Positions 10,444 to 49,232 of a stretch of 64,000 bases of DNA are shown here, piece by piece. Positions within the stretch are counted from its first letter, which is position 1, and every line of letters begins with the position of its first letter. Origin of the DNA: an uncultured Burkholderiales bacterium (GTDB taxonomy: Bacteria; Actinomycetota; Acidimicrobiia; IMCC26256; JACPCJ01); NCBI GenBank assembly GCA_964438505.1, contig CAYTKN010000001.1, positions 181,509-245,508 of the forward strand. The letters are read 5' to 3'. The notes under the pieces are model-generated. The model was not told the DNA's origin, ran no database searches, and was given only the letters and a program-made list of their open reading frames with translations. Position numbers and translations under genes: made by a program.

Positions 10444-11877
10444 ATGGGCGACTTCGAGGCGACCACGCTCGACGACTTCTTCGACAGCACCGCTGACCGT
10501 CCCGTCCTCGGGTTGCTCTACGGGCGCCGACGCATCGGGAAGTCGACCCTCCTCGTCCAGCAGGTGGAGTCCCGTGGCGGCTTCTACTTCGAGGCCACGC
10601 GCGTGGAGTCCGCGGTGCAGTTGGACCGGCTCGGGAAGGCGCTCGGGGCGCACCTGGGGGTCGGTACGATCGCCCTGGCCGACTGGGAGGAGGCGTTCGA
10701 GGCGTTGTTGCGTCTGGGCTCCGGTGCACCCGTCCCGATCGTGCTCGACGAGTTCGGCCACGTCCTCGAGGCCGACCGCTCCGTCGACTCGGTCCTCGCA
10801 TCCGCGCTCGGCCCCGGAGCTCGTGCCCGGTCTTCGAGTCGGGCTCGCCTGGTGCTGTGCGGCTCGGCGATCGCGCTGATGCGGGCCCTGACCGCGGGGG
10901 AGGCGCCGCTTCGAGGGCGTGCCGGCATCGAGCTGGTCATGCGTCCGGACGACTACCGGGTCGCCGCGACCCGCCTCCCCGAACCCGACGACCTCGAGAC
11001 CGCGGCGCGCGTCTTTGCCGTCATCGGGGGCGTGGTCGGGTACGCGACCGACATGGTGAACTTCGATCTCCCGTCGGGGCGCGACGACTTCGACCGCTGG
11101 GTGGCCCATCGGGTGCTCTCCCCGGCAGCGACCCTGCACCGCGAGGCCACCACGCTCCTAGCGGAGGACCCGACCCTCGCCGGGCGCGGTTCGATGTTGC
11201 ACCACAGCCTCCTCGGGGTCATCGCCAACGGCTCCGTGACCGCCGGAGCCATCGCCAACCGGCTCGGGAAGCAGGTGTCGAACCTGGCTCCGGCGCTGAA
11301 CCGCCTCGTCGAGGCGGGGTTCGTGACCCGACACGAGGATCCGGTCCGGCACCGACGGCCGCTGTACGCCCTCGCCGACCCGTTCCTCCAGTTCCACTAC
11401 GCGGTGCTCGAACCCCACGGCCCGGCGCTGCGGGATCGTGATCCGTCGGAGGTCTGGGAGCGACGCCTCGTCGACGTGTTCGGCTCGCAGGTGCGGGGAC
11501 CGGTGTTCGAGGAGCAGGCCCGCACCTGGGTTCGACGGTTCGCGAGTGCCGAGACCCTCCCGGTCCGTGAGCACGTCGGGCCCTCGCACGTGACCGTCGA
11601 GGGTGTCGATCACCAACTCGACGTGGTGGTCACCGGCTCCGACCCGGATCCGGCCGAACGCCCGATCGTGGCGATCGGTGAGGCGAAGGCGGGTGAGACC
11701 GTGGGCACCGGCCACCTGCGACGCCTCGAGCGCGCCCGCGCGGCGTTCGGCCCGAAGGCGGCGGGGGCGAAGCTGCTCGTGTTCGCGGTGGCGGCCGACC
11801 CGGAGGTGGTCGAGGACGCCGAGGCGCGTCCGGACGTGGAGATCGTCGATCTGCCGCGTCTGTACCGAGGCGGATGA
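10444..11877 (+). CDS. AAA-type ATPase, archaeal-ATPase/DUF234-like architecture
   Basis: P-loop GRRRIGKST and Walker B IVLDEF. A long C-terminal region ends in a nuclease-fold-like segment (IVAIGEAKAGE). Confidence 0.65.
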   Translation: MGDFEATTLDDFFDSTADRPVLGLLYGRRRIGKSTLLVQQVESRGGFYFEATRVESAVQLDRLGKALGAHLGVGTIALADWEEAFEALLRLGSGAPVPIVLDEFGHVLEADRSVDSVLASALGPGARARSSSRARLVLCGSAIALMRALTAGEAPLRGRAGIELVMRPDDYRVAATRLPEPDDLETAARVFAVIGGVVGYATDMVNFDLPSGRDDFDRWVAHRVLSPAATLHREATTLLAEDPTLAGRGSMLHHSLLGVIANGSVTAGAIANRLGKQVSNLAPALNRLVEAGFVTRHEDPVRHRRPLYALADPFLQFHYAVLEPHGPALRDRDPSEVWERRLVDVFGSQVRGPVFEEQARTWVRRFASAETLPVREHVGPSHVTVEGVDHQLDVVVTGSDPDPAERPIVAIGEAKAGETVGTGHLRRLERARAAFGPKAAGAKLLVFAVAADPEVVEDAEARPDVEIVDLPRLYRGG

Positions 11878-11899
11878 CCGGAAGACGCCGGCCGCCGCG

Positions 11900-12826
11900 T
11901 CATGGGTCGTGGTCGGGTGGGGGTCGGGTGGTGCGGCGTCCTTCGTGGTGGTGGGGGCATCGGAGTCGACCGTTGGTCTGTTCGGTGAACCCGCCGGCAG
12001 CGTGGGGGTGGGTGTGGTCGACGTCGCAGCGTTCCGCGGGTTCGTCGCAGTAGTCGTGGGTGCATTCGCGGTCGCGGACTTCGACGGCGCGGCGGGTGGC
12101 GCCGGTGAAGAGGCGTTGCTTGACGCCCACGTCGAGGACGCGGGAGGCCCCGTCGAAGACGACGCGTTCGATGTCGGCTTCGGTGAGCCACCCGGCGAGC
12201 GCGCCGGGGGTGACCACGGTGCCGTCCGCGAGCTCGCAGACCCGCCCCGCGAGGGTCGGGTAGTCGACCAGGACGGTGAACAGCGGCCGGGGCCGCTTCG
12301 CGTCGGCGGGGGTGCTGGCGGCGCGGGTGGCCATCTCGACGAGCGCGTCGAAGCGGCGCTGCGCCGGAGTGCGCGCCAGGTGCTCGACACGCGTGTCGTC
12401 GCCGTGTTGCGCTTTGGCTTGGGTCCAGTCGTCGGCGAAGAGCTCGTCGTCGATGCGGGCGAGCACCTCCGCGACGATCCCACCACGGATCGCGTCCGCC
12501 TGCCCATCGAGCACCCACGACCCGTCGAGGGTTTGGGAGACGTGCAGGCGGCGCTGCTCCTGGGCTGTGGCCGCGTCGGCTTCGACGCCGTCGGGATCGG
12601 CGAGCTGCTCCCAGTAGGCGACCGCGCGCTGCCACTGCGCGAACGTCAACTCACGGGCCTGGTCGACGAGCAACGCCTCGTCGCGGGCGAAGAGCTCCGC
12701 GCGCTCCGGGGTCGCGGCGCGCGCCAAACGCTCCACGTGCGCGACGGTGACCGCCCCCGCTGACAGCGCTTCGGCGGTGGCGGGCATCTCGCGGAGCCGT
12801 CGCGCGAGGCGCACCCGACGGCGGCC
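11900..12826 (-). repeat. inverted repeat arm A (927 bp) shared with 24111..25037
   Basis: The encoded 308 aa differ at 11 positions from copy B, and the last 168 aa are identical. The off-frame track ORFs 12060..12263 and 24674..24877 are identical. Confidence 0.85.
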
Positions 12827-13180
12827 CTCGGCTTTCGGCAACCGGCAGCGTCGCGCCAGCCACGCCCCCGCCGAGCGCGCCCGATCCACCAGCCACACCC
12901 GCCGCGCGTCCCAGCGGCCCACCACCCGAGCCTGCGCAGCCTCGAAACGGGCGCGCACCCCCTCCAACCCCACCACCAACTCCGACAGCTCGGAGGCCGA
13001 CAGCGCGTCCACATCCAACCCGGCGAGCGCATCCACCCCCGCCGACAACCCCTCCAGCACCGCCCCGGGCGCGTCGTCCGGCAGCGCCACCGGCGCCACC
13101 GGCCCGGCAGGGCGCGCGGACAGCACCGGTCGCGCCGGCGCCTCGGTTCCCTGGAGCTCGGCCTCGTCGATCACGAACAC
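11900..13180 (-). CDS. DUF222 / HNH endonuclease (REP13E12-like), full-length copy A
   Basis: GTG start. C-terminal HNH-like RDRECTHDYCDEPAERCDVDHTHPHAAGGFTEQTNGRLRCPHHH. Near-identical second copy at 24087..25037. Confidence 0.85.
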   Translation of the reverse strand: MFVIDEAELQGTEAPARPVLSARPAGPVAPVALPDDAPGAVLEGLSAGVDALAGLDVDALSASELSELVVGLEGVRARFEAAQARVVGRWDARRVWLVDRARSAGAWLARRCRLPKAEGRRRVRLARRLREMPATAEALSAGAVTVAHVERLARAATPERAELFARDEALLVDQARELTFAQWQRAVAYWEQLADPDGVEADAATAQEQRRLHVSQTLDGSWVLDGQADAIRGGIVAEVLARIDDELFADDWTQAKAQHGDDTRVEHLARTPAQRRFDALVEMATRAASTPADAKRPRPLFTVLVDYPTLAGRVCELADGTVVTPGALAGWLTEADIERVVFDGASRVLDVGVKQRLFTGATRRAVEVRDRECTHDYCDEPAERCDVDHTHPHAAGGFTEQTNGRLRCPHHHEGRRTTRPPPDHDP

Positions 13181-13402
13181 ATGTTCGCACCCGCCTGTGA
13201 CAAGAACACCGCCAAACCGGGCCCACCCGCCAGAACATCGAGATTCTTTGGATTCGGAGCGGGACCCGTTCAGAGCTGCTGGTGATGTGGCGGCGGGGTT
13301 CGAGGGAGACGAGCCAAGTGGCGCCGGCGACCGAGATCAGGGGGAGGAGTTGTCCGCGGCCTGACGGGAGCCGGCAATCGGTTCCGCGTCGGCCCGGGCG
13401 GG

Positions 13403-15214
13403 TCAGCGGTGGCGGGCGAGGCGGCGGGTGGCCTCCACGTAGAGCATGCGGGCGGCGAGGGCGAGGAAGAGGATCGCCACCAGGGCGGTGACGGTGGTCG
13501 CCGACCAGGGGGAGCCCGCTTCGTCGTCGGCGGAGGGGCGGTCGACCGCGAGGGGCTGGCGCGGCATCCCGGACGACCCATCCTCACCGTCGGTCGCCTG
13601 GGTGCCGCCGCTGTCGCCGCCTGCGGTCGACGCACCGCCTGGGGTGCCCGGCGTCGCCGTGCCTCCGGCGTTGCTCGTCGTGCCGCCGCCGGTGCTGCCG
13701 GTGCTGGTGTCGGTGGTGCCGCTGGTGTCGCTGCCGGTGACGAGCGAGAGGTCGCCGCCGTCGCCGCTGTCACCCCCGGAGTCGCCCGAGGTGGTCGGGT
13801 CCCAGAACGCGCCGCCGGAGGATCCGCCGGTGCTGCTGCCGGACCCGTCGCTGGTGCCGCTGTTGTCGCCGGTGCCGCCGCCACCGCTGGTCGTGTCGCT
13901 ACTCGTGCCGCCGCCGGTGCCGCTGGTGCCGCCGGTCGAGCCGCCGGAGCCACCGGTGGTCGACGAGCCGTCGTCGCCGGGTTCGGTCGAGGGCGAGGAG
14001 CCGGAGGTCGTGGTGGTCGACGACGACGAGGAGCCGGAGGTGGTCGTGGTCGTCGAGCTGGTCGAGCTCGACGAGGAGGGGCTGTCGGAGTCGGCGCGGC
14101 AGTCGGTCATGGCGCAGTAGACGTCGAGGACGCCGCCGGTGGCGACCTTGCCGTCGAGCGCGTCCACCGGGCGGACGTTGTCGAGGATGCGCGCCTTGAG
14201 CTCGCCGACCGACAGGCCGGGCTCGTGGGCGAGGATCAGCGCCGCCGCGCCGGAGACGAACGCCGTCGACAGCGATGAGCCATCCGCGATGCAGTCCTCG
14301 TTCTGGGGGGTTGTGCAGATGTTCTCGCCGGGAGCGGCGAGGTCGACCGACTTCGCGCCGTAGTTGGATCGGGTCCACAGCTCGTCGTCGTGGTCGGTGG
14401 CGGCCACACAAAGCTGGTTGGCCATTCCGAAGTTGCACGGGTATTGGGGGTCTGCGTCGTTGTTGTCGCCGGAGTTGCCCGCCCCGGTGACGACGAGGAT
14501 GCCGTGGTCGCCAGCCTTGGCGATCTTGTCCTCGAGGGTTTGGTTGTTGCTCACCCAAGCGCCCCAGGAGGCGTTGATGACGCGCACGTTCACCCCATCC
14601 TGCTTGGCGCGGATCACCCAGTCGAGCGCCTCGCTCACGGTTCCGATGTCCTTGGAGCTCCCATAGGTGACCCCCATGATCGCGGTGGTCCAATTCACCC
14701 CGGCGAGACCGGTCTCGTTGTGGCCCACGGCCCCCATCACGTGGGCCATATCGCTGCCGTGCCCGCCACCGTCGCGATTGGGCGCGCACTCCTGAGTGGG
14801 GACGTGGTAGCCGTGCGTGCCGGCGGGGCACTTGTTGACCTTTTCGGAGCTCTCCCACACGTTGGCGGCGAGGTCCTGGGCTTCGTAGTCGAGGTCCTGG
14901 TCGATGAGGCCGATCACCACCGATTTCGAGCCGGTGGTGAGCCCCCAGGCCTCCGTGGCGTTGATGTCGGCCCCGGGGGTGCCCTCGTCCCAGTCGGGGC
15001 CCATCTGGCCGGTGTTCTCGAGGGCCCACTGGTCGTCGTACATGCGGTCGTTCGGGCGGCGCTCGGAACCGGCCACCACCGCCACCGGCATCAACAGGGC
15101 GACCACAGCGGAAACCGCCAGCGTCGCAAGCCCGTGCTGGTTGCTCGGGCGCGGACCGCCACCCGACCCGCTCGGGGCCGGGTGGCGGTCGCGGGTGCCG
15201 CCTCGGCGGATCAT
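13403..15214 (-). CDS. secreted subtilisin-like S8 serine peptidase with Ser/Thr/Gly-rich stalk and C-terminal membrane anchor
   Basis: Catalytic motifs VVIGLIDQD (Asp), GGGHGSDMAHVMGA (His), INASWG (Asn), DGSSLSTAFVSGAAAL (Ser). About 190 aa of S/T/G low complexity. Terminal TM VTALVAILFLALAA. Starts 10 nt after the upstream gene stop. Confidence 0.85.
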   Translation of the reverse strand: MIRRGGTRDRHPAPSGSGGGPRPSNQHGLATLAVSAVVALLMPVAVVAGSERRPNDRMYDDQWALENTGQMGPDWDEGTPGADINATEAWGLTTGSKSVVIGLIDQDLDYEAQDLAANVWESSEKVNKCPAGTHGYHVPTQECAPNRDGGGHGSDMAHVMGAVGHNETGLAGVNWTTAIMGVTYGSSKDIGTVSEALDWVIRAKQDGVNVRVINASWGAWVSNNQTLEDKIAKAGDHGILVVTGAGNSGDNNDADPQYPCNFGMANQLCVAATDHDDELWTRSNYGAKSVDLAAPGENICTTPQNEDCIADGSSLSTAFVSGAAALILAHEPGLSVGELKARILDNVRPVDALDGKVATGGVLDVYCAMTDCRADSDSPSSSSSTSSTTTTTSGSSSSSTTTTSGSSPSTEPGDDGSSTTGGSGGSTGGTSGTGGGTSSDTTSGGGGTGDNSGTSDGSGSSTGGSSGGAFWDPTTSGDSGGDSGDGGDLSLVTGSDTSGTTDTSTGSTGGGTTSNAGGTATPGTPGGASTAGGDSGGTQATDGEDGSSGMPRQPLAVDRPSADDEAGSPWSATTVTALVAILFLALAARMLYVEATRRLARHR

Positions 15215-15224
15215 CGACGTCCGC

Positions 15225-16466
15225 TCATGCGTCGGGTGGTTCCTCGTCGGGGTGCCAGGCGATCACGGTGCCCAGCGACACGCTCGGGTTCGGTTCCTCG
15301 AAAGGTACGACCACCCGGGTGGCGGCCGAGTCGGCCTCGAGGCACAGCCACGCCTCCTGGCCGTTGGCGTAGGCGTCGACCATGTAGTCGACCGGGCCGA
15401 TCCCACCGTGGGCGATCGGGTGGTTGCCGGGCACCAGGTTGGGTGGGTCGCTCGTCGTCGTGCACGCCGTCGAGTCGCCGTCGGTCGACGGGGTCCCCAC
15501 GCCGCCGCCGGAGATCTCGGGATCGGCGCCGCTGGAGTCGATCACCAGCTTGCCGCCGTAGCCGTCGCCGCTGCCGGTGTCTTCCACGCGGGTGCACACC
15601 CACACCTCGTCGGAGGACGGCTGATGCGTGTAGAGCTTCGTGTACACCCCCTCGGTGGTGGAGTCCACGACGCGGGTCCCGCCGTTGAGTTCACAGTCCT
15701 GCGACGGCGTTCGGATGTCACTTGGTTCGAAGTCGATGAGCGGGTCGAGGTCAAGGAGCGGGTCGGTCGCGGGACTCGTCATGCTGAAGGTGCCCGTAAG
15801 TCGTTGAATGTTGGCAGCCGCCACTTCCGTCGCTTCACCAGTGAAGTCGAGGTCGACAGGAGCCACCGCCCACGCTTCATCGCAGGGAAGGTCACTCTTA
15901 TCGTCCCAGCAGACGCTCAGGTCGGTGACGACATCGAGCTCCCATGTGTCCTTACCGTCGAGGCCGACGCGCCGGTAGGTGCCCACCGCGTCAGGACCCA
16001 ACTTGGCTTCGGGGGTTAGATCACCACCGGCAAGGGATCCAGCGATGTCGTAAAAGAGGAATCGCTCGAAATTGATGCTGTCGATGGTGCCTTCCTCGGT
16101 GAGGCTTGTCCAGGATCCCGAGGTGGTGCTCCCGGTGAAACACGGAGCCTCCTCTTGAAAGCAGAGCAGTTCAATACCGAGCGGGCCACCATCACGTGTC
16201 CATACCCCGTGAACGTATTGGAATTCCTGCGCTTCCCAGGCTGTGGGCGTGCCCGTACGCTTCCAGTCACCGTCCCATTTCCCGGTAACGATCTCGGTCG
16301 TGGCCTTCACGTCGGTGGGGTCGGCCTGCGCGTCGCCGACGGGGGTCAGCGCCAGCATGGCCACCGCCAGCGTGACCGTGAGGAGTCGCCGCAGCGCATG
16401 TGACCGCCTCCTCCCCGTCGTGGTCTCCCGCCGTTCCCGCCGTGTGGTGCTTCTCGTCGTCTGCAC
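15225..16466 (-). CDS. secreted protein of unknown function, co-operonic with the S8 peptidase
   Basis: Track ORF 15225..16724 trimmed to GTG 16466. Arg-rich N-region plus hydrophobic core ...RRRSHALRRLLTVTLAVAMLALTPVGDAQA (possibly Tat-like). Mature part has 8 Cys. Visibly lower GC. Confidence 0.55.
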   Translation of the reverse strand: MQTTRSTTRRERRETTTGRRRSHALRRLLTVTLAVAMLALTPVGDAQADPTDVKATTEIVTGKWDGDWKRTGTPTAWEAQEFQYVHGVWTRDGGPLGIELLCFQEEAPCFTGSTTSGSWTSLTEEGTIDSINFERFLFYDIAGSLAGGDLTPEAKLGPDAVGTYRRVGLDGKDTWELDVVTDLSVCWDDKSDLPCDEAWAVAPVDLDFTGEATEVAAANIQRLTGTFSMTSPATDPLLDLDPLIDFEPSDIRTPSQDCELNGGTRVVDSTTEGVYTKLYTHQPSSDEVWVCTRVEDTGSGDGYGGKLVIDSSGADPEISGGGVGTPSTDGDSTACTTTSDPPNLVPGNHPIAHGGIGPVDYMVDAYANGQEAWLCLEADSAATRVVVPFEEPNPSVSLGTVIAWHPDEEPPDA

Positions 16467-16582
16467 GTGGATCCTCCCCGTGGTTCGGCGTGCTCGCCGA
16501 AGGCCCGTTCCGGCACCGCCCGGGGCCACCTGCCGTGGCGGCGGGTGCAGGTGGTGAGTGTGCAAGCACCGTTCGCAGCTTG

Positions 16583-16602
16583 CATCCCCCGATCGGGGGA
16601 TG
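16583..16602. promoter_or_regulatory. perfect 20-bp palindrome CATCCCCCGATCGGGGGATG (island motif, site a)
   Basis: 116 nt upstream of start 16466. Related copies at 18380, 20231, 21641 and 22833. Confidence 0.45.
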
Positions 16603-16736
16603 TGCCGGTGTCGGCGCGGTGGGGACACTGCTCGCGGTCCTCGCGTGGGTTCCCGAAAGCCGGATCGAGGTTCGGTTCGCACGCGATCGTCGTGTTGTTG
16701 TCGCCGGTGCGACGGTACAGACACGTCAAGGAGTTT

Positions 16737-16793
16737 TGAACCGGTTCATTTGCGCGTGTTGGGGGGTCCAACACGCGCTCTGAGCGCGTGTTG
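16737..16793. promoter_or_regulatory. palindrome TGAACCGGTTCA plus three alternating GCGCGTGTTG(G) arms (alternative hairpins or a multi-site operator)
   Basis: GCGCGTGTTGG 16752-16762, CCAACACGCGC 16768-16778, GCGCGTGTTG 16784-16793, with 5-nt spacers. Confidence 0.4.
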
Positions 16794-16848
16794 ACACCAC
16801 GAATTCGGGACGCACCATGACGGTCTCCTCGAACGCCGCGTCGGCCGG

Positions 16849-18270
16849 TCATCGGTTCTCCCGGTCCGACGCGGCCCGCTCCGCTCGCCTGGCACGCCCC
16901 CACGCCGGGTCACCCGGTGGGGGGAGCGAGTCGGGGTCGGCCCAGTAGAGGGAGAGCGCCCAGCCGAGGCTGGCGACGTCCACCGGGTTGGCGAGATCGA
17001 GGCCGCAGCGCGATTCGATCTGGCGGAGCTTGCGGCGCACCTCCTTGGTCCCCACCCCGAGCCGCCGCGCCGTGGCGGCCCAGTTCCCGCGGGTGTCGCG
17101 CAGCGCGGTGAGCGCCTCGAGGTCGCGCCGCGCCCGGTCGTGGCGGCGGGCCAGCGCGGGACCGACGACCGCGTCGACGTCGAGGACGCGGGCGTCGTCG
17201 TCGGGTTGGCTCGCCGCCCACACCAGCGCGAGGTCGAAGGCGCGGAGCACCCGGCCGCGCGGCCGGAACCGCTCCAGGACGCCGAGACGCCGGCGTAGGC
17301 CCCGGTAGACGCCGGCGAGCTCCTCGAGCGCCGCGACCGGCTCGGCGACCGCCACCAGCCCTGCCTCCTCCAGGCGCGGCGTCAGCGTCGCGACCACCTC
17401 GTCCCAGGTGCGCTCCCGCAGCGGCACCACCGCCACCACGTGCGGGTGCGGGTCCGCCACGGTCGGGGCGACCAGGCCGAGAGCGACCACCGGGGTGAGC
17501 GTCACGACCCGAGCGCGCAGGTCCCGTTCCCCCACGACGCCGCCGTCGTCTCGGGCGGCTGGGTCGGCCGGGTCACGTCCGAGCGGGGCGACGACCAGCA
17601 GGGCCGCCGGCGCCTCGAGCGTCGAGGCGCACCGCCGTGCGGCGACGGCCACCTGCTCGTCGCTGTCGAAGTCGCCGGCGAGCAGCGAGGCGAGGAAGTC
17701 GCGGCGGGCCTCGGCGGCGCGCACCGCGTCCGGCCGGTGGTAGCCGCGCTCGAACGCCGCCCACTGGGCGGTGCGGAACTCCTGGGCGTGCAACGCCAGA
17801 TGCCGGGACGCCGCCCACACGTCCACCCGCCGCGGCGACCACTCCTCGGTCAGCACCGCCAGCTCGTCGTAGAGGTACTCGAACCCCGCGGCGTTGGCGG
17901 CGCTCGTCGCCGCGTGCAACCCCTCCAGGGGCACCCCCTGGTGCGCCCGCTGCTCACCCACCGCCTCGAGCACCTCCACCTCACCGGCGGAGAGCCCGCG
18001 GCCCTCACGCAACGTCCGCAACAGCAGGCTCGCCGTGCGGGTCACCCCGAAGCGCACCGCCTCGAGCGCGTCACCCGAGAGGTTCCGGTAGCCGGGTGCC
18101 GCGTCGCGCACCGCGGCGAGGATCGCCTCGACCAACCCGTCGAGGTCACCCTCGACGCGCTCGGCCAACATCCGGCAGCACTCCGCCGGGCTCACGTGCA
18201 GCGGCACCGCCTCGCTGCCCGACGAGCGCCCCGCCGCACCCGAATCGTCGTCGTGCTTCGCCATCGCCAC
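16849..18270 (-). CDS. PucR/CdaR-like transcriptional regulator (paralog 1)
   Basis: Large N-terminal sensor-like region. C-terminal HTH WAATARRLGVGTKEVRRKLRQIESRCGLDL. The tail ...YWADPDSLPPPGDPAWG is shared with 20276..21625. Confidence 0.6.
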   Translation of the reverse strand: MAMAKHDDDSGAAGRSSGSEAVPLHVSPAECCRMLAERVEGDLDGLVEAILAAVRDAAPGYRNLSGDALEAVRFGVTRTASLLLRTLREGRGLSAGEVEVLEAVGEQRAHQGVPLEGLHAATSAANAAGFEYLYDELAVLTEEWSPRRVDVWAASRHLALHAQEFRTAQWAAFERGYHRPDAVRAAEARRDFLASLLAGDFDSDEQVAVAARRCASTLEAPAALLVVAPLGRDPADPAARDDGGVVGERDLRARVVTLTPVVALGLVAPTVADPHPHVVAVVPLRERTWDEVVATLTPRLEEAGLVAVAEPVAALEELAGVYRGLRRRLGVLERFRPRGRVLRAFDLALVWAASQPDDDARVLDVDAVVGPALARRHDRARRDLEALTALRDTRGNWAATARRLGVGTKEVRRKLRQIESRCGLDLANPVDVASLGWALSLYWADPDSLPPPGDPAWGRARRAERAASDRENR

Positions 18271-18379
18271 CTCCCCGACGTCGATGGCCCTCTACTGAGG
18301 GACACGCAGACGAGCCGAAAAAGTGTCGGTGTGAACGCGGAAACGTGCGCCGCCGTCGTTCCCGGATCGCGGAATCTGA

Positions 18380-18395
18380 GGGGAATCGGGGGACG
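18380..18395. promoter_or_regulatory. half-site of the island palindrome (minus-strand reading CGTCCCCCGATTCCCC, site e)
   Basis: About 112 nt upstream of the regulator start at 18270, inside a lower-GC divergent promoter region with A6/T7 runs. Confidence 0.3.
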
Positions 18396-18564
18396 CGAGC
18401 CGGCGGCGCGGGGGCGCAGCGGGCAAAAAATCGGCCTCCGAGCAAATTTTTTTCGTTTCGACCGTCACATTTTCGGGACTTCTGCGTGTACCCGAGGGGA
18501 GGAACCGCGCGGAGGCGGAAAATTCCGCGCGCAACGTGGTGGGTCGACCACCGCACGTAATGAC

Positions 18565-19848
18565 ATGCCGGGGATGCCGGGGGAGCACACGATGAGGGGT
18601 CAGCACAGACGAGACGAGGTCGCGGCCCGCCGCGACGGCGAAGGCGACAGCAGCCACGAGCACGGTGCTGCCGGTGCTGCCGGCGCGGTCGGCGCGCGCG
18701 CCGTGACCGTCGAGGAGCTCTGGCGCCGCCACGGACGGGAGCTGGAGCGACTGGCATCACGGGTGCTCGACGACACCCGGGCGGTCGACGCTGCCTGCTA
18801 CGGGGTCATGCTCCGCGCCGGCGAGTGGCTCGAGACGAGCCGCCGCGCCGTTCCGCGTGAGACCGCGCGGTGGTGGCTGCGGGATCTCTGCGCGGACGTG
18901 TGCGGGGAGATCCTCGCCGATGGCGTCCCTTCCGCCTGGCTGACCGACGACCCGCTCCCCGAAGCCCTGCCCACCCGGGTGCGCTCCGCGCTGGGCTTCC
19001 AGGCGGCCCGGCGGCGCCTCGATCGCGTCGAGGCCATGGCCCCCACGGAGGGGCCGGTCGCCCGCGCCCGGCAGCGCCAGCGGGCACGGTGGCGCGAGGC
19101 GCTGGAGGAACAGCTCCGGGGGCTTCGCACCCTGGTGCCCCTCGCCCTGCTCGCCCAGCTCGCCCGGAAGGCCTGGGACGGCGCCGAGCGCGCCGGGCGC
19201 GACGTCTGGCGGCGGGTGGAGGTCGCCGCCTCGACGGCGATGCCTCCCGGACAGCGGGTCGCCGGGCTGCTCAGCGCCGGCCCCGGATTCCCCGAGGCCG
19301 CGGCGGTGGTCACCGCGTTCGTCGCCGTCGGCGTGGCAGCACCCGAGCCGCCGCCGCGGGCCACGCCGATCGACGGCCGGGAGGTCGCCTCGACGCTCGT
19401 GGAGCGCCGTGAGGAGCGGACGGCCGCCTCGGACGCGGCCTCGTCGGAGGCCCTGACACACCCCGACGGTGACGAGCTCGCGGCCTCGACACCGTCACCT
19501 CGACCGGAGGCGGACGGGGACGCGTCGCCCGAGCCGGATCCTGGACCCGGGCTCCCGACGCCGGGACCGGACGCGGAGGTGGACGCTGATCCGGGCGGGG
19601 CGGCGGATGAACCCGTAGAGAAGAAGCACAGAAGCCACGGGACCAAATACCAGATTGCGAGTCACCGCGCGGGTGTCGATGTCGACGGCGACGGCGAGGA
19701 CGAGGTGTGGGTGAAGGGTTCAGTCTTCAATTTCCACTGCCGCGCTGATCCCAGTCGGCGCGGGCCGGTCAGCAGTCAGGTCTGCCCGGTGCTGGCGGAC
19801 TCCGAGGTCGTCGAAGAGTCCGAGCTCATCACTGAGGAGGAGGGCTGA
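18565..19848 (+). CDS. membrane protein with a sigma-70 region-2-like N-terminus, function unknown
   Basis: ATG 18565 inside track ORF 17440..19848. The segment VEELWRRHGRELERLASRVLDDTRAVDAACYGVMLRAGEWL...ARWWLRDLCADV resembles ECF sigma region 2. I see no region-4 HTH. One TM (AAAVVTAFVAVGVAA), then a P/D/E-rich extracytoplasmic tail. Confidence 0.5.
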   Translation: MPGMPGEHTMRGQHRRDEVAARRDGEGDSSHEHGAAGAAGAVGARAVTVEELWRRHGRELERLASRVLDDTRAVDAACYGVMLRAGEWLETSRRAVPRETARWWLRDLCADVCGEILADGVPSAWLTDDPLPEALPTRVRSALGFQAARRRLDRVEAMAPTEGPVARARQRQRARWREALEEQLRGLRTLVPLALLAQLARKAWDGAERAGRDVWRRVEVAASTAMPPGQRVAGLLSAGPGFPEAAAVVTAFVAVGVAAPEPPPRATPIDGREVASTLVERREERTAASDAASSEALTHPDGDELAASTPSPRPEADGDASPEPDPGPGLPTPGPDAEVDADPGGAADEPVEKKHRSHGTKYQIASHRAGVDVDGDGEDEVWVKGSVFNFHCRADPSRRGPVSSQVCPVLADSEVVEESELITEEEG

Positions 19849-19893
19849 CCGATGGGCTCCTCATGCCACGGGGTGGCGACGACAGGGGGCTGC

Positions 19894-20169
19894 TCAGATA
19901 TCGACCGTGCAGACGAAGATCTCCCACGAGATGCCGAACGCCTCGCCGGATTTCGGCCCGTAGCTCTCGGCGCTGCAGTCCCAGTCGTCGCAGTAGTCGC
20001 GGATGGTCTCGGTGGTCGTCGAGCCGTCCTTGCCGAGCTCGACGTACCCACAGTTGGTCGGATGGTGATTGGTGGCGTCCGCCGGCGAGCCCGAAAAGCC
20101 AATGCCGAGGGCTGTGGCCACCGCGATCAGCGCCACCAGGGCGCGCGCCCATATCTTCCGAATCTCCAT
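19894..20169 (-). CDS. small secreted Cys-rich protein (about 60-aa mature peptide)
   Basis: ATG 20169 inside ORF 19894..20223, preceded by GAAGGAGG. Signal peptide MEIRKIWARALVALIAVATALGIGFSGSPADA. Mature part has 4 Cys. Clearly lower GC. Confidence 0.5.
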   Translation of the reverse strand: MEIRKIWARALVALIAVATALGIGFSGSPADATNHHPTNCGYVELGKDGSTTTETIRDYCDDWDCSAESYGPKSGEAFGISWEIFVCTVDI

Positions 20170-20230
20170 ACCGAGCCTGCCTCCTTCGACGAAGTGCGAA
20201 GACATGTTAGGAGAACATTGCACTCATCTA

Positions 20231-20249
20231 CATCCCCCAATCGGGTGAA
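20231..20249. promoter_or_regulatory. island motif site b (CATCCCCCAATCGGGTGAA, i.e. the reverse complement of TTCACCCGATTGGGGGATG)
   Basis: Lies between the divergent starts 20169 (-) and 20276 (+). Confidence 0.4.
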
Positions 20250-20275
20250 CAACACAAAAAATCTCGGGAGCGACC

Positions 20276-21625
20276 GTGAGTAGGGGCCGGGACACATCCG
20301 AAGAGCGGCTCGGCTGGATCGGCGTCGCGACGATGATCGTCCTCCGGGAAGAGGTCGACGACGTCGTCGCCGGCGTGGTCAAACGGGTCCGCTCGGCGTC
20401 CCCCGAACCGCGACGAGCCGTCTCCGTGGTCGTCGAGAGCCCCGCGTACACCGCCTTCGTCCGCCGCGTCGCCTCCATCGCCGGCAACGCGCTCGCCGGC
20501 CGGTCCGAACGGGTCGCCGAGGAGATCGTCACCGCGTGCGACGAGGCCATCGACCTCGTGACCGACGGCGCGTCGACCGACCTCGTCCGCCGCAGCATCC
20601 ACGCCACCACCGCCGTCGCGCTCGACCGAGTGCTCAAGCACGTCGACTCCGAGCGCGACCACCCGACCGGCGCCCGGGTGCGATCGGCCGTCGGCGCGCT
20701 CAACGACTGCGAGTTCGAGCTGCTCGCAGCCTTCGAGCGCGCCGTGCGCGCCGTCGAGGACGACGAGGGCACCCGAGCGCAGCGCCTCCGCGAGTCGTTC
20801 CTGCGCGCCGTGCTCGAAGGGCCCGTGCGCGACCCCCTCGCCACCACACGCCGCGGAGAGCGCCTCGACCTCGACCTCACCCCACCCCTCGGCCTCGTGC
20901 TGCTCGTCGACGCGGCCTCCCGCAACTCCCGCAACTCCCGCAAGTCCCGCGACCCGTCCACACCCGAGTCGTTCGAGGAGCGCGTCCAGCGATGCGCGCG
21001 CCGCCCCGACCACCGCCTCCTGCCACCCGTGCTCGTCGACCCCGACCCCGGCGAACCGCTCTGCGCGGTGCTCGCCGTCCCCGCCTACCGCCCTCCGCTG
21101 GCCGCCGAGGTCGACGAGCAGCTCACCGCCGCCTGTGACGAGCTCGGGCTGCTGGCCGTGCGCGCCTCCGCCGCCGACCTCGCGGAGGCCCCCGTGCTCC
21201 ACCATCGCCTCCGCCTCCACGGCCCCCTCCTCGAGCGCTGCGCACGACACGTCGGTGCCTTCACCACCCTCGACTCGCTCTTCCCCTACCGCCTCGTCCA
21301 GGAGCTCACCAGCGCCGAGACCGACGAGCTGCTCCGTGAGCAGGTCGGCCCGCTCGTGACGACCGTCCGCCACGCACGCGAGCGGGTGGCGACCTGGAAG
21401 CTCCTCGTGCGCGAGCGCCTCACCGACCCCGAAGCCGCCGAACGCCTCGGCATCGGGATCAGCGCCATCTCCAAGCGCCGGCGGGTCATCGAGGCGATCC
21501 GCGGCGACCTGAGCACCGGCCTGTTCCGCTCCCAGACGGCCTCCTACGCCTACGAGCTCTGGGAGGACGACCTCCCGCCCCCCGGCGACCCGTGGTGGCG
21601 CGGCGAGGAATCCACCGGGGGGTGA
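20276..21625 (+). CDS. PucR-like transcriptional regulator (paralog 2)
   Basis: C-terminal HTH PEAAERLGIGISAISKRRRVIEAIRGDL. The tail ...YELWEDDLPPPGDPWWRG matches the tail of 16849..18270. Internal SRNSRNSRKSR arises from a 9-bp tandem repeat. Confidence 0.55.
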   Translation: MSRGRDTSEERLGWIGVATMIVLREEVDDVVAGVVKRVRSASPEPRRAVSVVVESPAYTAFVRRVASIAGNALAGRSERVAEEIVTACDEAIDLVTDGASTDLVRRSIHATTAVALDRVLKHVDSERDHPTGARVRSAVGALNDCEFELLAAFERAVRAVEDDEGTRAQRLRESFLRAVLEGPVRDPLATTRRGERLDLDLTPPLGLVLLVDAASRNSRNSRKSRDPSTPESFEERVQRCARRPDHRLLPPVLVDPDPGEPLCAVLAVPAYRPPLAAEVDEQLTAACDELGLLAVRASAADLAEAPVLHHRLRLHGPLLERCARHVGAFTTLDSLFPYRLVQELTSAETDELLREQVGPLVTTVRHARERVATWKLLVRERLTDPEAAERLGIGISAISKRRRVIEAIRGDLSTGLFRSQTASYAYELWEDDLPPPGDPWWRGEESTGG

Positions 21626-21640
21626 GAAGACCTCGACTTC

Positions 21641-21659
21641 TTCACCCGATTGGGGGAAG
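21641..21659 (+). promoter_or_regulatory. island motif site c (TTCACCCGATTGGGGGAAG)
   Basis: 109 nt upstream of start 21769. The following bases GCAACGCGCGGGGC resemble those after site d. Confidence 0.4.
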
Positions 21660-21768
21660 CAACGCGCGGGGCTTCTCGAAAACACTGTGAAAGTGACGAG
21701 TTCCGGCAATTCCCCGGCGCGAGAACGGCGATCTCCACCCCTCGACCGCGCCGCGACCGCTCCGTAGC

Positions 21769-22725
21769 GTGCCCGCCATGGACGACGACATGACACCCCG
21801 AGACCCTCACCCGGACCCTCCGATGGACGCGGTTCCGGCCCGCAACGGCCACCGCTTCGTGAGGACGCGGGAACGCCCCTCGGTCGACGAGCGGATCACC
21901 GACGCGCAGCGGCTCTGCACGCAGGTCTACGACCGCGGCGGGTCGCTCCACGACCTCGACCCGATCGACTCGCTCGACACGCTGGCGACCATGGGCGACG
22001 CCGAGGGGGCGATCGAGGCGATCGAGCGCATGCGCGCCGCCGGGCTGACCGTCGATCCCGACGACCACCTCATGGTGCTCGTCAGCTACCACGTCCACGC
22101 CCGCGGCGAGGACGCCGAGCGCTACCTGCGAGGCCTCCCACCGGACGAGCTGACCACCGCGCACCTCGCCCTCGTCCTCTCCGCGTACGCCATCACCGGC
22201 CGCGCGGACGAGGCCGAGGCGCTCTACCTCGACTACGAGGACTGGCCCATGGCCGACGGCGAGGACTGCCACGTCGCCCTGCTCTACGCGTTCAGCTTCG
22301 TCGGCGAGCCCCGGCGCGCCCGCGAGTGGTTCCGGACCGTCACCGAGCGTGACGAGCAGCTCGCGACCCCCCGGATGCTGGTCGCCCTCGTGCAGGCCCA
22401 CTCCAGCCCCGAATCCCTCGACGAGCTCCGCGCCCTGCGCGACGAGCTCGACGAGGAGACCCGCCGTGACCCCGAGGTGGCGGGCTCGCTCGTCAGAGGG
22501 TTCGCCTGGGCCGGCGACCCCGAGCGCGCCGAGGAGCACCTCCCCGACGCCCTCGCCGGCCTCGGCCCCGACGACGAAGAGGACGGCCGGCACCTCGTCG
22601 TCTGCTGCATCGGCGCATACCGGTCGTCCGCCGACGAGGACATCGACCGGCTGCTCGCCATCGCCGAGGACGCGGGGGTCGGGCTCAGGGACCCCAGGCT
22701 CACACCCGGGTTCCGAGAGCCCTGA
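21769..22725 (+). CDS. acidic helical-repeat protein (TPR/PPR-like, about 35-aa repeats), paralog 1
   Basis: Repeating helix-pair units, e.g. HLMVLVSYHVHARGEDAERYLRGLPPDELTTA / HLALVLSAYAITGRADEAEALYLDY / HVALLYAFSFVGEPRRAREWFRTV / MLVALVQAHSS.... No signal peptide. Confidence 0.5.
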   Translation: MPAMDDDMTPRDPHPDPPMDAVPARNGHRFVRTRERPSVDERITDAQRLCTQVYDRGGSLHDLDPIDSLDTLATMGDAEGAIEAIERMRAAGLTVDPDDHLMVLVSYHVHARGEDAERYLRGLPPDELTTAHLALVLSAYAITGRADEAEALYLDYEDWPMADGEDCHVALLYAFSFVGEPRRAREWFRTVTERDEQLATPRMLVALVQAHSSPESLDELRALRDELDEETRRDPEVAGSLVRGFAWAGDPERAEEHLPDALAGLGPDDEEDGRHLVVCCIGAYRSSADEDIDRLLAIAEDAGVGLRDPRLTPGFREP

Positions 22726-22832
22726 CCTCGCCGCGAGATCCCACCCCCTCGCGTTCCGCTGTGAGCCGAGCCTGTCGACGAGCGGCGGGGCGCGGGGGGT
22801 GGGAACCAGGGGTCGGAATGTCGTCGATCTCG

Positions 22833-22851
22833 TTCACCCGATCGGGGGATG
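22833..22851 (+). promoter_or_regulatory. island motif site d (TTCACCCGATCGGGGGATG)
   Basis: 119 nt upstream of GTG 22971. Confidence 0.4.
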
Positions 22852-22970
22852 CAGCGCGCAGGACCCCGTGATCCGGCCCCGAGAAGGGCGGATTCGCGCA
22901 CCCGGCCCGACCGACAAGTGGTGGTCTCCCCCCTCGAACGAGCCCGCTCGCCTGCGTAGGGTCCCCGTAC

Positions 22971-23873
22971 GTGACAGCGTCGCAGCGTGAAGCCCGCCAG
23001 GCAACCGGGCACCGTGAGCACCGCGAGAGGACGAGCGAGATGGCGGGCGACGAAGCCGACGAGCACGAAGAGCCACCTCGCCGGCCGCGCCTCAGCGACG
23101 GGCGAGCCAAAGAGCGGACCCTGCGGGCCCGCCTCCGCACCTGCGCGGTGGTCGGCGACGTCGACGGCGCGCGCGCCGCCGTCATCTGGATGGAGCGCTT
23201 GGAGTACCCGGTCGGCGACGAGGAGCACCTGCTGGTGCTGATCGCCCACCAGGCGAGCGACCGCGCCGTGGAGGCCGAGGAGTACTTCCGCTCCATCCCC
23301 GAGGACCAGCGGACCATGGCCCACTTCCGCTCGGTGATGGCCACCTACACCTTCAAGCGCCGCCCCCACGACGTCGAACGCCTCTACCTCGAGCTCGAGT
23401 CGACCCCCGACGCCCTTGACGACGACTGCCGCAGCCTGCTCCTCTCGGCGCTCGCCTTCGAGCACGAGGACGCCCGGGCGCGGGTGTGGTTCCAACGCTT
23501 CGAGCAGCAGTCCGACGAGCCGCCCGGCCCGGGGCTCGTCGCGCACCTGATCAACGCCCACGCCTACCCCGGAGCGCACGACCAGCTCGTGGCGATCCAC
23601 GACAGGCTGGACGAGGAGCTGCTGCACGAGCCCGAGGTGGCATCCACGATGGTGCGCGCCCTCGTCGCGGCGGGTGACCCCGAGCGCGCCGAACGCTGTC
23701 TCCGCGACGCCCTCGCCGTCGTCGAGGAAGACGAGGAGCGCGAGCGGCTCGTCGGCGACTGCATCCGGGGTCGCCGGCGCGACCGTGAGGCCGTCCGCCG
23801 GCTGCTCGCCACCGCCGAGGAAGCCGGTGTCGACGTCGAACACCTGGGGTCAGGCTTCGGCATCCTGCCCTGA
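22971..23873 (+). CDS. acidic helical-repeat protein (TPR/PPR-like), paralog 2
   Basis: Same repeat architecture and colinear similarity to 21769..22725 (HLLVLIAHQASDRAVEAEEYF..., GDPERAERCLRDALA vs GDPERAEEHLPDALA). The start is uncertain; ATG 23040 is the alternative. Confidence 0.5.
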   Translation: MTASQREARQATGHREHRERTSEMAGDEADEHEEPPRRPRLSDGRAKERTLRARLRTCAVVGDVDGARAAVIWMERLEYPVGDEEHLLVLIAHQASDRAVEAEEYFRSIPEDQRTMAHFRSVMATYTFKRRPHDVERLYLELESTPDALDDDCRSLLLSALAFEHEDARARVWFQRFEQQSDEPPGPGLVAHLINAHAYPGAHDQLVAIHDRLDEELLHEPEVASTMVRALVAAGDPERAERCLRDALAVVEEDEERERLVGDCIRGRRRDREAVRRLLATAEEAGVDVEHLGSGFGILP

Positions 23874-23918
23874 CCCGAGCGCGGGGGACGAGCGCGGGGG
23901 AGGGCGGACGACGGCGGC

Positions 23919-24069
23919 TCACACCTCGATCACGTCGAGGCCTGCCACCGAGACGTGATCACGGTCCTGGGTCACGATCGGGACCTCCAGGGCGAGCGCG
24001 GTGGCCGCGATCCACGAGTCGTTGATTGGCACGCGCTCGCCGGCATCTCGGAGGAGGACGTTGTTGTCA
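23919..24069 (-). pseudogene. C-terminal remnant of a PIN-domain (VapC) toxin gene
   Basis: The minus strand reads ...SDNNVLLRDAGERVPINDSWIAATALALEVPIVTQDRDHVSVAGLDVIEV*, a typical VapC C-terminus. The N-terminal two-thirds are missing. The break coincides with the 5' end of HNH copy B. Confidence 0.6.
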
Positions 24070-24086
24070 GAGGCGGGTGCGAACAT

Positions 24087-25037
24087 GTGTTCGTGATCGA
24101 CGAGGCCGAGGGCCGCCGTCGGGTGCGCCTGGCGCGGCGCTTGCGTGAGATGCCCGCCACCGCCGAAGCACTGGCGGACGGTGCGATCACGGTGGCGCAC
24201 GTGGAGCGTTTGGCGCGCGCCGCGACCCCGGAGCGCGGGGAGCTCTTCGCCCGCGACGAGGCGCTGCTCGTCGACCAGGCCCGTGAGTTGACGTTCGCGC
24301 AGTGGCAGCGCGCGGTTGCCTACTGGGAGCAGCTCGCCGATCCCGACGGCGTCGAAGCCAATTCGGCCGCAGCCGAGGAGCAGCGCCGCCTGCACGTCTC
24401 CCAGACCCTCGACGGGTCGTGGGTGCTCGACGGGCAGGCGGATGCGATCCGCGGTGGGATCGTCGCCGATGTGCTCGCCCGCATCGACGACGAGCTCTTC
24501 GCCGACGACTGGGCCCAAGCCAAGGCCCTCCACGGCGACGACACGCGTGTCGAGCATCTGGCGCGCACCCCCGCGCAGCGCCGCTTCGACGCGCTCGTCG
24601 AGATGGCCACCCGCGCCGCCAGCACCCCCGCCGACGCGAAGCGGCCCCGGCCGCTGTTCACCGTCCTGGTCGACTACCCGACCCTCGCGGGGCGGGTCTG
24701 CGAGCTCGCGGACGGCACCGTGGTCACCCCCGGCGCGCTCGCCGGGTGGCTCACCGAAGCCGACATCGAACGCGTCGTCTTCGACGGGGCCTCCCGCGTC
24801 CTCGACGTGGGCGTCAAGCAACGCCTCTTCACCGGCGCCACCCGCCGCGCCGTCGAAGTCCGCGACCGCGAATGCACCCACGACTACTGCGACGAACCCG
24901 CGGAACGCTGCGACGTCGACCACACCCACCCCCACGCTGCCGGCGGGTTCACCGAACAGACCAACGGTCGACTCCGATGCCCCCACCACCACGAAGGACG
25001 CCGCACCACCCGACCCCCACCCGACCACGACCCATGA
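24087..25037 (+). CDS. DUF222 / HNH endonuclease (REP13E12-like), copy B with a 330-bp in-frame internal deletion
   Basis: VFVIDEAE|GRRRVRLARRL... joins codon 8 to codon 119 of copy A. The HNH C-terminus is identical to copy A. The upstream extension of the track ORF (23955..) is antisense to the VapC remnant. Confidence 0.75.
   Translation: MFVIDEAEGRRRVRLARRLREMPATAEALADGAITVAHVERLARAATPERGELFARDEALLVDQARELTFAQWQRAVAYWEQLADPDGVEANSAAAEEQRRLHVSQTLDGSWVLDGQADAIRGGIVADVLARIDDELFADDWAQAKALHGDDTRVEHLARTPAQRRFDALVEMATRAASTPADAKRPRPLFTVLVDYPTLAGRVCELADGTVVTPGALAGWLTEADIERVVFDGASRVLDVGVKQRLFTGATRRAVEVRDRECTHDYCDEPAERCDVDHTHPHAAGGFTEQTNGRLRCPHHHEGRRTTRPPPDHDP
24111..25037 (+). repeat. inverted repeat arm B (927 bp) shared with 11900..12826
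   Basis: See arm A. The short 5' segment 24064-24110 also matches about 13157-13196. Confidence 0.85.
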
Positions 25038-25066
25038 GGCGGCGTCGGGAGGACTCGGCACCTTGT

Positions 25067-25273
25067 ATGCTGATCTGCATGCAATCCACGAGCGTGCGGA
25101 TCGACGCCGCGACGCACGAGGAGCTCAAGCGACTCGCGGACGAGTTGGGAACGACCGTCGGTCAGGCCGTCGCGGCCGCCGTGCGGTGCATGCGTCAGGA
25201 CCGCGTCGGTCAGGAGCTCGCCGCACCCTTGCGCGATGACGAGTCCGCGTGGCTCGATGCTGACCTCGGGTGA
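25067..25273 (+). CDS. ribbon-helix-helix antitoxin (MazE-like) of TA pair 1
   Basis: The tail of track ORF 24302..25273 reads M(LIC)MQSTSVRIDAATHEELKRLADELGTTVGQAVAAAV.... It overlaps the downstream toxin start. Confidence 0.7.
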   Translation: MLICMQSTSVRIDAATHEELKRLADELGTTVGQAVAAAVRCMRQDRVGQELAAPLRDDESAWLDADLG

Positions 25274-25601
25274 CGTCCTCGATCTCGATCTCGGTGTGCC
25301 CGAGGGGCGGGAAGCCGGCTTCAGGCATCCCGCGGTGGTGGTGACGGCTCAGCGTGTCCTGGACGCCTCTCCGTCGGTCGTGCAGGTCGTCCCACTCACC
25401 ACGACGGTGCGGCGGTTCGGGTCGGAGGTGACGATCGAACCCGACCGGCAGAACGGTCTCGCCGAGCGCTCGGCCGCGCAGTGCCAACACGTCCGGGCCA
25501 TCTCCCGCCACCGCGCTCGGTCGGTTCGCGGCAACGTCGGAGCCGTGGCGCTGAACCAGATCCGCGAGACGATCGGGTTGATCCTCGACGTGGGCCCCTG
25601 A
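25257..25601 (+). CDS. MazF/PemK family toxin (TA pair 1)
   Basis: MLTSGDVLDLDLGVPEGREAGFRHPAVVVT...VVPLTTT...QCQHVRAIS is the typical MazF pattern. The track start at 25236 is the alternative. Confidence 0.75.
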   Translation: MLTSGDVLDLDLGVPEGREAGFRHPAVVVTAQRVLDASPSVVQVVPLTTTVRRFGSEVTIEPDRQNGLAERSAAQCQHVRAISRHRARSVRGNVGAVALNQIRETIGLILDVGP

Positions 25602-25959: not shown

Positions 25960-26174
25960 CAGGACCGACCGTCGGCCGCGGTGACCTCCCACGCCTGCTC
26001 GTCGTCGCCCGCCCATTCTTCCCAGGCGTCCTCGTACGCGGGGCCGAGTTGCGACGCCCGGAGAAGTCGCACGGCCCGGTGCACGACCGCCGAGCGCGAG
26101 GCGACCCCCTGCGCCTGGGCGTAGGCATCCAGGAACTCGACGTCTTCCTCGGGCAGGCTGACGCTCAGCTTCAT
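25959..26174 (-). CDS. ribbon-helix-helix (CopG/MazE-like) antitoxin (TA pair 2)
   Basis: [38 protein letters not shown]. Its stop overlaps the toxin start by 1 nt. Confidence 0.8.
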
Positions 26175-49230: not shown

Positions 49231-49232
49231 TG

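Follow-up and report, generated by a model that had tools for sequence, protein, structure and literature searches.

A 64-kb stretch of contig CAYTKN010000001.1 (assembly GCA_964438505.1), here called the window and analysed at its full length, carries two genes of the DUF222-HNH family in inverted orientation: copy A (11900-13180, minus strand) and copy B (24087-25037, plus strand). The explanation that we favour, with a probability of about 0.8, is that these genes are old DUF222-HNH paralogs with DNA-damage promoter motifs, that copy B has undergone a deletion at a short microhomology, that the 3' parts of both genes were recently made identical by gene conversion, and that the pair offers a latent substrate for RecA-dependent inversion. 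The genome data are those of the window, which has a G+C content of about 72%. Copies of DUF222 were counted there, and tblastn together with self-comparison of the window recovered these two and no third. By the sequence of AtpD, which is 83-88% identical to proteins from metagenome-assembled genomes (MAGs) of Acidimicrobiia, the host is placed as an Acidimicrobiia-like actinobacterium.

Structure and divergence of the inverted gene pair

The initial annotation had described two inverted DUF222/HNH copies, and this arrangement was borne out when the two regions were aligned at the nucleotide level. A repeat finder returned a long pair of inverted arms (11888-12832 / 24105-25049, 945 nt, 96%) and a short one (13157-13207 / 24060-24110, 51 nt, 96%). 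The block structure was derived from a gapped local pairwise alignment, with copy A read on the reverse strand. It consists of a 5' block (A13207..13163 = B24060..24104) with two internal mismatches and a 3' block of 947 nt (A12832..11886 = B24105..25051). Homology fades within about 12 nt beyond the stop codon, and the repeat unit comprises the gene and only about 27 nt of upstream DNA. Transcription of both copies points outward from a 10.85-kb middle segment, so that the identical 465 bp listed below form the outermost ends of a 13.1-kb unit. The two genes are divided as follows.

11900..13180, minus: copy A, full-length DUF222/HNH gene, 426 aa from the first GTG (open reading frame list and Pfam)
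11900..12364, minus: identical 3' tract of copy A, 465 nt, encoding the C-terminal DUF222 part and the HNH motif
12365..12832, minus: divergent part of the 3' block of copy A, with 37 mismatches, 15 of them within 12743-12806
12833..13162, minus: segment unique to copy A, 330 nt, codons 9-118, with direct GCCGAG repeats at its borders
13163..13207, minus: shared 5' block of copy A, predicted promoter/operator and first 6-8 codons
24060..24104, plus: shared 5' block of copy B, from the alignment with copy A
24087..25037, plus: copy B, DUF222/HNH gene without codons 9-118 of copy A, 316 aa
24099..24104, plus: deletion junction of copy B, one GCCGAG followed directly by GGCCGCC
24105..24572, plus: divergent part of the 3' block of copy B, from the gapped alignment
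24573..25037, plus: identical 3' tract of copy B, 465 nt

Copy A has an alternative start at a second GTG (13174), and the G+C content at its third codon positions is 0.89. The 316-aa product of copy B is also present in an NCBI-derived protein set (P0001), and tblastn aligned it to residues 114-426 of copy A with 95.5% identity. Re-alignment of the proteins gave the same counts as had been noted from the sequence before, namely 11 substitutions, located between residues 140 and 258 of copy A, and identity of the final 168 residues.

The mismatches in the 3' block are unevenly distributed. The 37 coding mismatches are confined to A12806-A12365, within the first 468 nt; the next 465 nt (A12364..11900 = B24573..25037) contain no mismatch and end exactly at the stop codon TGA. 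This tract gives an exact length to the roughly 0.5 kb of identical DNA claimed in the initial annotation. With mismatches at the density of the 5' part, a tail of 465 nt would stay free of them with a probability of 2e-17, and with the overall density the value is 7e-9; permutation gave such a tail in 0 of 200,000 cases. The divergent 468 nt contain 24 synonymous and 13 non-synonymous changes by the Nei-Gojobori method, corresponding to a synonymous divergence (dS) of 0.23, a non-synonymous divergence (dN) of 0.038 and a dN/dS of 0.16. Because of these values, copies A and B are regarded, from their sequences, as old paralogs that diverged as functional genes under purifying selection.

In the last 155 codons the number of synonymous changes is 0. 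Since synonymous differences are missing from the identical half too, gene conversion, and not selection at the protein level, would explain it, and we infer that the 3' half was homogenised recently by this process. The recent conversion that had been read from the identity gradient in the initial annotation thus agrees with a pattern that is much stronger than chance would give and that extends to synonymous sites. The divergent half, too, is a mosaic: 15 mismatches fall within 64 nt (12743-12806, 23%, dS 0.53) versus 22 within 378 nt (5.8%; Fisher p = 4e-5). The patch of 23% divergence adjoins the deletion side, and the 26 nt directly at the deletion junction are well conserved. This mosaic points to several exchanges that took place at different times, or to a third copy elsewhere in the genome as donor.

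The 330 nt absent from copy B are bordered by the hexamer GCCGAG, which copy A has once at 13163-13168, immediately outside the segment, and once at 12833-12838, where it forms the last 6 nt of the segment. With a slash marking the breakpoint, the deletion edges in copy A read GACGAGGCCGAG/CTCCAGG and CCGAAAGCCGAG/GGCCGCC, and in copy B they are joined as GACGAGGCCGAG/GGCCGCC. The microhomology-flanked in-frame deletion that had been proposed therefore stands: both edges carry GCCGAG in copy A, and the loss of 330 nt removes exactly 110 codons and keeps the frame. When deletions were simulated in this gene, about 0.4% of those with a length of 100-600 nt had microhomology of at least 6 nt, and the share was 3% for a length of exactly 330 nt.

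In a 30-sequence alignment the N-terminal region missing from copy B is retained in all 28 other homologs and includes the nearly invariant residues L45, D56, L72, R78, D91, W96, A101 and W107. An AlphaFold2 model of copy A has a mean predicted local distance difference test score (pLDDT) of 76, with values above 90 at residues ~41-180, and in it the deleted segment forms four helices (37-53, 62-92, 95-99, 104-111) and the start of a fifth. Because every homolog keeps the segment, copy B is, as judged by this comparison, a deletion derivative that has lost four confidently modelled helices. Its 5' block is intact, and therefore the N-terminally deleted protein is probably still expressed. For annotation, copy B would be flagged as an N-terminally deleted and probably still expressed variant.

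The course of events that we propose starts from two chromosomal DUF222-HNH paralogs that would have diverged under purifying selection. In the first event, slippage during replication or microhomology-mediated end joining would have taken out 330 bp between the GCCGAG hexamers of copy B; 110 codons from the conserved helical region at the N-terminus would thereby have been lost, with promoter, start and frame kept. In the second, one or more non-reciprocal recombination events may have made the outer 465 bp identical.

The assignment of both copies to the DUF222 proteins, the type found in the REP13E12 family, as put forward initially, was upheld by Pfam. DUF222 (PF02720) matched copy A with E=8.7e-23 and 81.5 bits (cutoff 24.4) over profile positions 6-306 of 306, and copy B with E=1.4e-17 over positions 49-306. 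The HNH motif C..C..DH..N..C..H is kept in both copies, and C373, C378, D388-H389, N403-G404, C408 and H411 are invariant in the 30-sequence alignment; this C/DH/N/C/H pattern is, at the sequence level, an HNH/zinc-finger signature. A search of 5.8 billion proteins yielded 1638 relatives at E<=1e-20, the closest non-self ones being 60-64% identical and coming from Acidimicrobiia MAGs and metagenome contigs; no relative exceeded 66% identity. A scan of genome contigs recovered 80 homologous loci (L002-L081) encoding proteins with 52-66% identity. Several copies per genome occur: at least four of the 80 listed loci belong to MAG YX3bin29, and at least four to MFD01828.bin.2.21. Structure comparison found no solved structure resembling the DUF222 domain, and the protein had no match in PHROG, PADLOC or NCBIfam. 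No match was obtained in 50,697 phage records either, and 72,556 plasmids gave two weak matches only.

A predicted DNA-damage promoter of both copies and its motifs in the family

Both copies begin with the common 5' string TTGTCA(C/G)AGGCGGGTGCGAACATGTG that had been pointed out in the initial annotation; written out by elements, it is TTGTCA(C/G)AG-GCGGGTGC-GAACAT-GTGTTC-GTG. What is new relative to that annotation is the reading of the 5' block, which looks like a DNA-damage promoter composed of a LexA box and a RecA-NDp-like element. The following motifs were assigned.

13174..13187, minus: LexA-type SOS box CGAACATGTGTTCG of copy A, a perfect CGAAC-N4-GTTCG that overlaps the GTG start
13181..13203, minus: RecA-NDp-like element of copy A, TTGTCA CAG - 8 nt - GAACAT
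24064..24086, plus: RecA-NDp-like element of copy B, TTGTCA GAG - 8 nt - GAACAT
24080..24093, plus: LexA-type SOS box CGAACATGTGTTCG of copy B, a perfect CGAAC-N4-GTTCG that overlaps the GTG start

The 64 kb contain no perfect CGAAC-N4-GTTCG site other than these two, against an expectation of 0.13. As a LexA box of the Cheo type CGAACATGTGTTCG is perfect, and it agrees with the Mycobacterium tuberculosis LexA consensus TCGAAC(N4)GTTCGA at 10 of the 12 specified positions (PMC3381160). The left half of the box is at the same time the -10-like hexamer GAACAT. TTGTCA-N11-GAACAT has the spacing of the RecA-NDp motif, the mycobacterial RecA-independent (PafBC) promoter motif tTGTCRgtg-8nt-TannnT (PMC5656591), and the match is partial, with G instead of T as the first base of the -10 element. 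The hexamer ends 6 nt before the second GTG, a spacing compatible with a leaderless transcript, and such a transcript may be produced from both DUF222 genes. In the proposed mechanism the LexA operator CGAACATGTGTTCG would cover the -10-like hexamer and the GTG, and the TTGTCA element, 11 nt upstream, would be of the PafBC-dependent type. From these motifs we infer that both genes are repressed by LexA and switched on after DNA damage with the help of a PafBC-type element.

The motifs recur across the family. Upstream motifs were counted in windows of ~300 nt for the 75 of the 80 homolog loci with usable upstream sequence. GAAC-N4-GTTC was found upstream in 26 of the 75, from at least 19 MAGs, at a density of 1.14/kb compared with 0.010/kb in 1.28 Mb of flanks (13 matches), which is a 113-fold enrichment. 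Eight homologs have the strict motif TGTCR-N11-TAnnnT upstream, in most cases as TGTCACACCCC-N6-TAnnnT; the strict motif is 90-fold above background. In most box-bearing homologs the box is located between a TTGACA-like -35 and a TAnnnT -10 element; the closest homolog (L003) has the same TTGTCA/-10 spacing as the window copies, and its box is likewise fused to the start codon.

Further occurrences of these and other elements were observed. In an Acidimicrobiaceae MAG (L059, 7655-7680), ruvC-ruvA is preceded by TAGCAT-C-GAACGCATGTTC. ruvC is a classical SOS gene, and the box in front of it supports GAAC-N4-GTTC as a LexA operator in Acidimicrobiia. A third perfect GAAC-N4-GTTC of the window (GAACGCATGTTC, 46897-46908) lies over the ATG of prfA (46903-47970), after TACGCT, and is probably a chance match at a leaderless start and not an SOS site. 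Twenty of 76 Acidimicrobiia DUF222 loci, against about 5 expected, carry a C-rich leader motif, CTTCCCC(C)TTGG, ~25 nt past the -10 element (examples are L011 9940-9975, L034 9936-9970 and L060 9959-9990, with a leader of 60-120 nt). This motif, which could be a leader RNA or an anti-Shine-Dalgarno element, is not present in copies A and B of the window. A terminator scan returned nothing at either copy.

The intervening segment, its possible inversion and competing explanations

The middle of the unit is occupied by the following features.

13208..24059: intervening segment, 10.85 kb, which would flip on recombination between the copies
13403-15214, minus: S8 peptidase
15225-16724, minus: hypothetical protein
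16849-18270, minus: PucR-like regulator
~18.6-19.85 kb, plus: open reading frame without family match
19894-20223, minus: small open reading frame
20276-21625, plus: distant PucR-like paralog
21769-22725 and 22971-23873, plus: TPR paralogs in tandem

The two PucR-like genes are in opposite orientation, and their products are 28% identical and share the C-terminal motif LPPPGDP-W; the tandem TPR proteins are 39% identical. These old internal duplications give the gene order across 11.9-25.0 kb its mirror-like appearance. Inside the S8 peptidase gene (13665-13953), 9-nt-periodic direct repeats encode a low-complexity stretch rich in Gly, Ser and Thr.

An inverted repeat with 465 bp of perfect and 945 bp of 96% identity is an adequate substrate for RecA recombination, by which the segment of ~10.9 kb could plausibly be inverted. 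If the crossover fell within the identical tract, 12365-24572 would change orientation, the genes and the promoter-gene junctions would stay as they are, and the outcome would therefore be a silent structural polymorphism and not a switch. The short-read de Bruijn graph is identical for both orientations. GC skew and the gene-strand pattern gave no clue to a past inversion, because the skew follows the coding strand. Five housekeeping proteins of the window were all singletons at 90% identity among 15 billion proteins, so that no sequenced close relative is at hand in which the orientation of the segment could be compared. When the central PucR-like protein was searched against genome contigs, no matching locus in related genomes was found, and its three detectable homologs lie in unrelated contexts without DUF222 genes.

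The repeat leaves its mark in the independent short-read contigs of Logan (run SRR9010616), which break where a k=31 graph should break at the repeat: contig L082 reaches 30 nt into the identical tract and ends at 11929, and contig L001 spans 13174..24088 with 2 mismatches to the window. The gene pair explains why short-read assemblies of this organism break at this place. The two mismatches of L001 are located at 17187 and 17324, inside the PucR-like gene (window G/A, Logan T/T, reverse strand), and mean that the culture or strain of SRR9010616 is near-identical but not identical, or that one of the assemblies contains errors.

Several observations weigh against the explanation favoured here. 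The full identity over 465 nt comes from one assembly; the Logan contigs prove the repeat boundary only. Inversion and damage induction in this organism are predictions from sequence. A consensus sigma-70 promoter scan was empty at both copies, the -10-like hexamer GAACAT lacks the first T, and the 64-kb window contains no canonical SOS gene (recA, lexA) by which the operator could be confirmed locally. The Pfam HNH profile (PF01844) stayed below threshold on the C-terminal 71 aa (E=0.013, 16 bits vs 21.4); many homologs carry a precomputed PF01844 match, and the modelled HNH region of copy A has low pLDDT.

Among the competing explanations, the most far-reaching assigns the exchange to the DUF222-HNH nuclease itself, which after damage would cut at or near its own paralogs and be followed by homing-like repair from the other copy. 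The identical tract does begin exactly at the outer 3' boundary of homology, divergence increases stepwise inward (0%, 5.8%, 23%) as for tracts that start from a fixed outer site, a nuclease motif is encoded together with damage-response promoter motifs across the family, and the 13E12 loci of M. tuberculosis are hotspots of conversion and inversion. If so, conversion from the 3' end inward and inversion would be catalysed by the element and would not be passive by-products of homology. No cleavage site or activity is known, however, for any DUF222-HNH protein, nor is there a solved structure, and ordinary RecA conversion between repeats of 96% identity suffices. Moreover, the gradient derives from a single pair, and the good conservation of the 26 nt at the deletion junction and of the 5' block makes it a mosaic and not a clean gradient. 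We consider a nuclease-driven exchange improbable, and just as doubtful is the wider notion that DUF222-HNH genes are damage-induced, self-propagating recombination modules across Actinomycetota with the 465-nt tract as their footprint. Still less probable is that the outer identity is an artefact of assembly or polishing, in which multi-mapped reads homogenised two different copies. Both copies are found together in one assembly only, and the repeat is beyond short-read assemblers, as the Logan breaks illustrate. Yet the same assembly keeps 37 differences and a 330-nt indel apart in the 5' halves, so the copies were resolved by the assembler, and the Logan contigs stop at the boundaries, which together make an artefact unlikely. 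The end of L082, 30 nt into the tract, is as expected if the sequence from 11900 inward has two contexts, and conversion tracts typically show such an abrupt drop in divergence, here from 8% to 0%.

A composite transposon-like mobile element, with the copies as its ends and the 10.85-kb segment as its cargo, would account for inverted copies with identical outermost ends and for neighbours of an accessory type (MazF toxins, a PADLOC candidate and a tRNA-Arg with an att-like repeat, see below). Against it, Pfam scans detected no transposase or integrase domain in or beside the unit, no recombinase gene is present in 10-27 kb, and no target-site duplication or direct repeat was found at the outer edges. 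A second DUF222 gene within 10 kb occurs in only 1 of the 80 homolog loci, where it results from a direct 6.5-kb segmental duplication; the contexts of the PucR-like homologs are unrelated and without DUF222, and the family is absent from the phage records and nearly absent from the plasmids searched. The composite element was rejected as a candidate on the missing target-site duplication, the lack of conservation of the cassette and the absence of paired copies in 79 of 80 loci. It retains a very small probability, and the 'cassette' of the initial annotation is not demonstrable as a unit. The least probable account is that strong purifying selection on the HNH domain, instead of recombination, kept the C-terminal halves identical. 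The tract does encode the most conserved part of the protein, but at a dS of 0.23 about 24 synonymous differences are expected in 465 nt and 0 were seen, by which this account is refuted. Old paralogs with a deletion in copy B and a recent conversion of their 3' ends thus remain the favoured explanation.

The single locus with a second DUF222 gene (L002) is on a MAG contig labelled Burkholderiales with an Acidimicrobiia-like DUF222 gene. Its positions 1-6473 and 9861-16333 are a direct duplication of 6473 nt (99.3%), and the right end of the duplication lies 17 nt beyond the end of the DUF222 tblastn match (6456).

Relation to known systems and neighbouring features

Anatomy and processes of the locus are directly precedented in M. 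tuberculosis. The 13E12 genes of that species (Rv0094c, Rv0336, Rv0515, Rv1148c, Rv1588c, Rv1702c, Rv1945, Rv3466) have the same architecture of DUF222 and C-terminal HNH and, like the genes studied here, are multi-copy in the chromosome with damage-promoter motifs at the 5' end. Six LexA chromatin immunoprecipitation peaks were reported at 13E12 genes, and RecA_NDp at other family members (PMC3381160), so that the damage wiring is a known trait of the family, seen here in another class. REP13E12 loci are among the most frequently converted of M. tuberculosis, a gene-conversion hotspot between paralogs (PMC13061034), and inverted copies serve as inversion breakpoints, DUF222 genes being >400-fold over-represented at heterogeneous inversion breakpoints (PMC13157036). 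The likeness is at the level of the protein family. The host class differs (Acidimicrobiia-like), with closest relatives of 60-66% identity that all come from Acidimicrobiia MAGs. Unlike in M. tuberculosis, the operator here lies over the start codon, any inversion would be local and not genome-scale, with only 10.9 kb between the two genes, and no role in phage attachment, such as the REP13E12 attachment site has for a phiRv1-type prophage, was seen. In or beside either copy no prophage or integrase was seen, a comparison of attB cores not having been part of the search.

The DUF222-HNH families of other Acidimicrobiia (L002-L081) likewise have several copies per genome, with an SOS box or a RecA-NDp-like motif in front of the gene. 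Most of them have the box between classical -35 and -10 elements and a 60-120-nt leader after it, whereas in the window copies and L003 it lies on the start codon; none of the other 80 loci showed an inverted pair at close spacing, unlike the window. Composite transposons flanked by insertion sequences, Hin/Gin-type switches and shufflons also have inverted repeats around a segment that can flip. In contrast to these, no transposase, invertase, integrase or short recombinase sites are present here, the repeats are whole genes of 0.95 kb, a flip would change no promoter connection, and any inversion would proceed by general homologous recombination. Mildly new are the phylogenetic reach to Acidimicrobiia, where SOS and RecA-NDp-like motifs show strong enrichment throughout the family, and the compact promoter, in which LexA box, -10-like hexamer and start codon coincide.

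Taken together, the hallmarks of the M. tuberculosis 13E12 genes, i.e. damage promoters, gene conversion and inverted placement, all appear to be present in a distant actinobacterial class, which argues that they are ancestral properties of DUF222-HNH genes and not peculiarities of the tubercle bacillus. The locus, at 13 kb, is also a compact place where damage-induced conversion or inversion could be measured.

Other features lie outside the copies. To the left of copy A (10444-11877), an ATPase with a MarR-type winged helix-turn-helix is encoded that matches the PADLOC candidate family PDC-S27 (E=1.7e-13). To the right of copy B are two MazF/PemK-like toxin genes (25236-25601, plus, E=7e-15; 25612-26190, minus, E=3e-24), which suggest an accessory neighbourhood rich in toxin-antitoxin genes. 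A tRNA-Arg(CCG) gene follows at 26974-27046 (minus), and the Rfam scan of the window returned tRNA only. A stretch made up of the 3' 38 nt of this gene and 42 nt downstream occurs a second time at a distance of 110 nt (26822-26902 vs 26932-27011, 98.8% identical), and the repeat looks like what remains of the att site of an integrated element that was later lost or reduced. Self-BLAST of the window further revealed a near-perfect palindrome of 55 nt at 49180-49234 with 94.5% self-complementarity.

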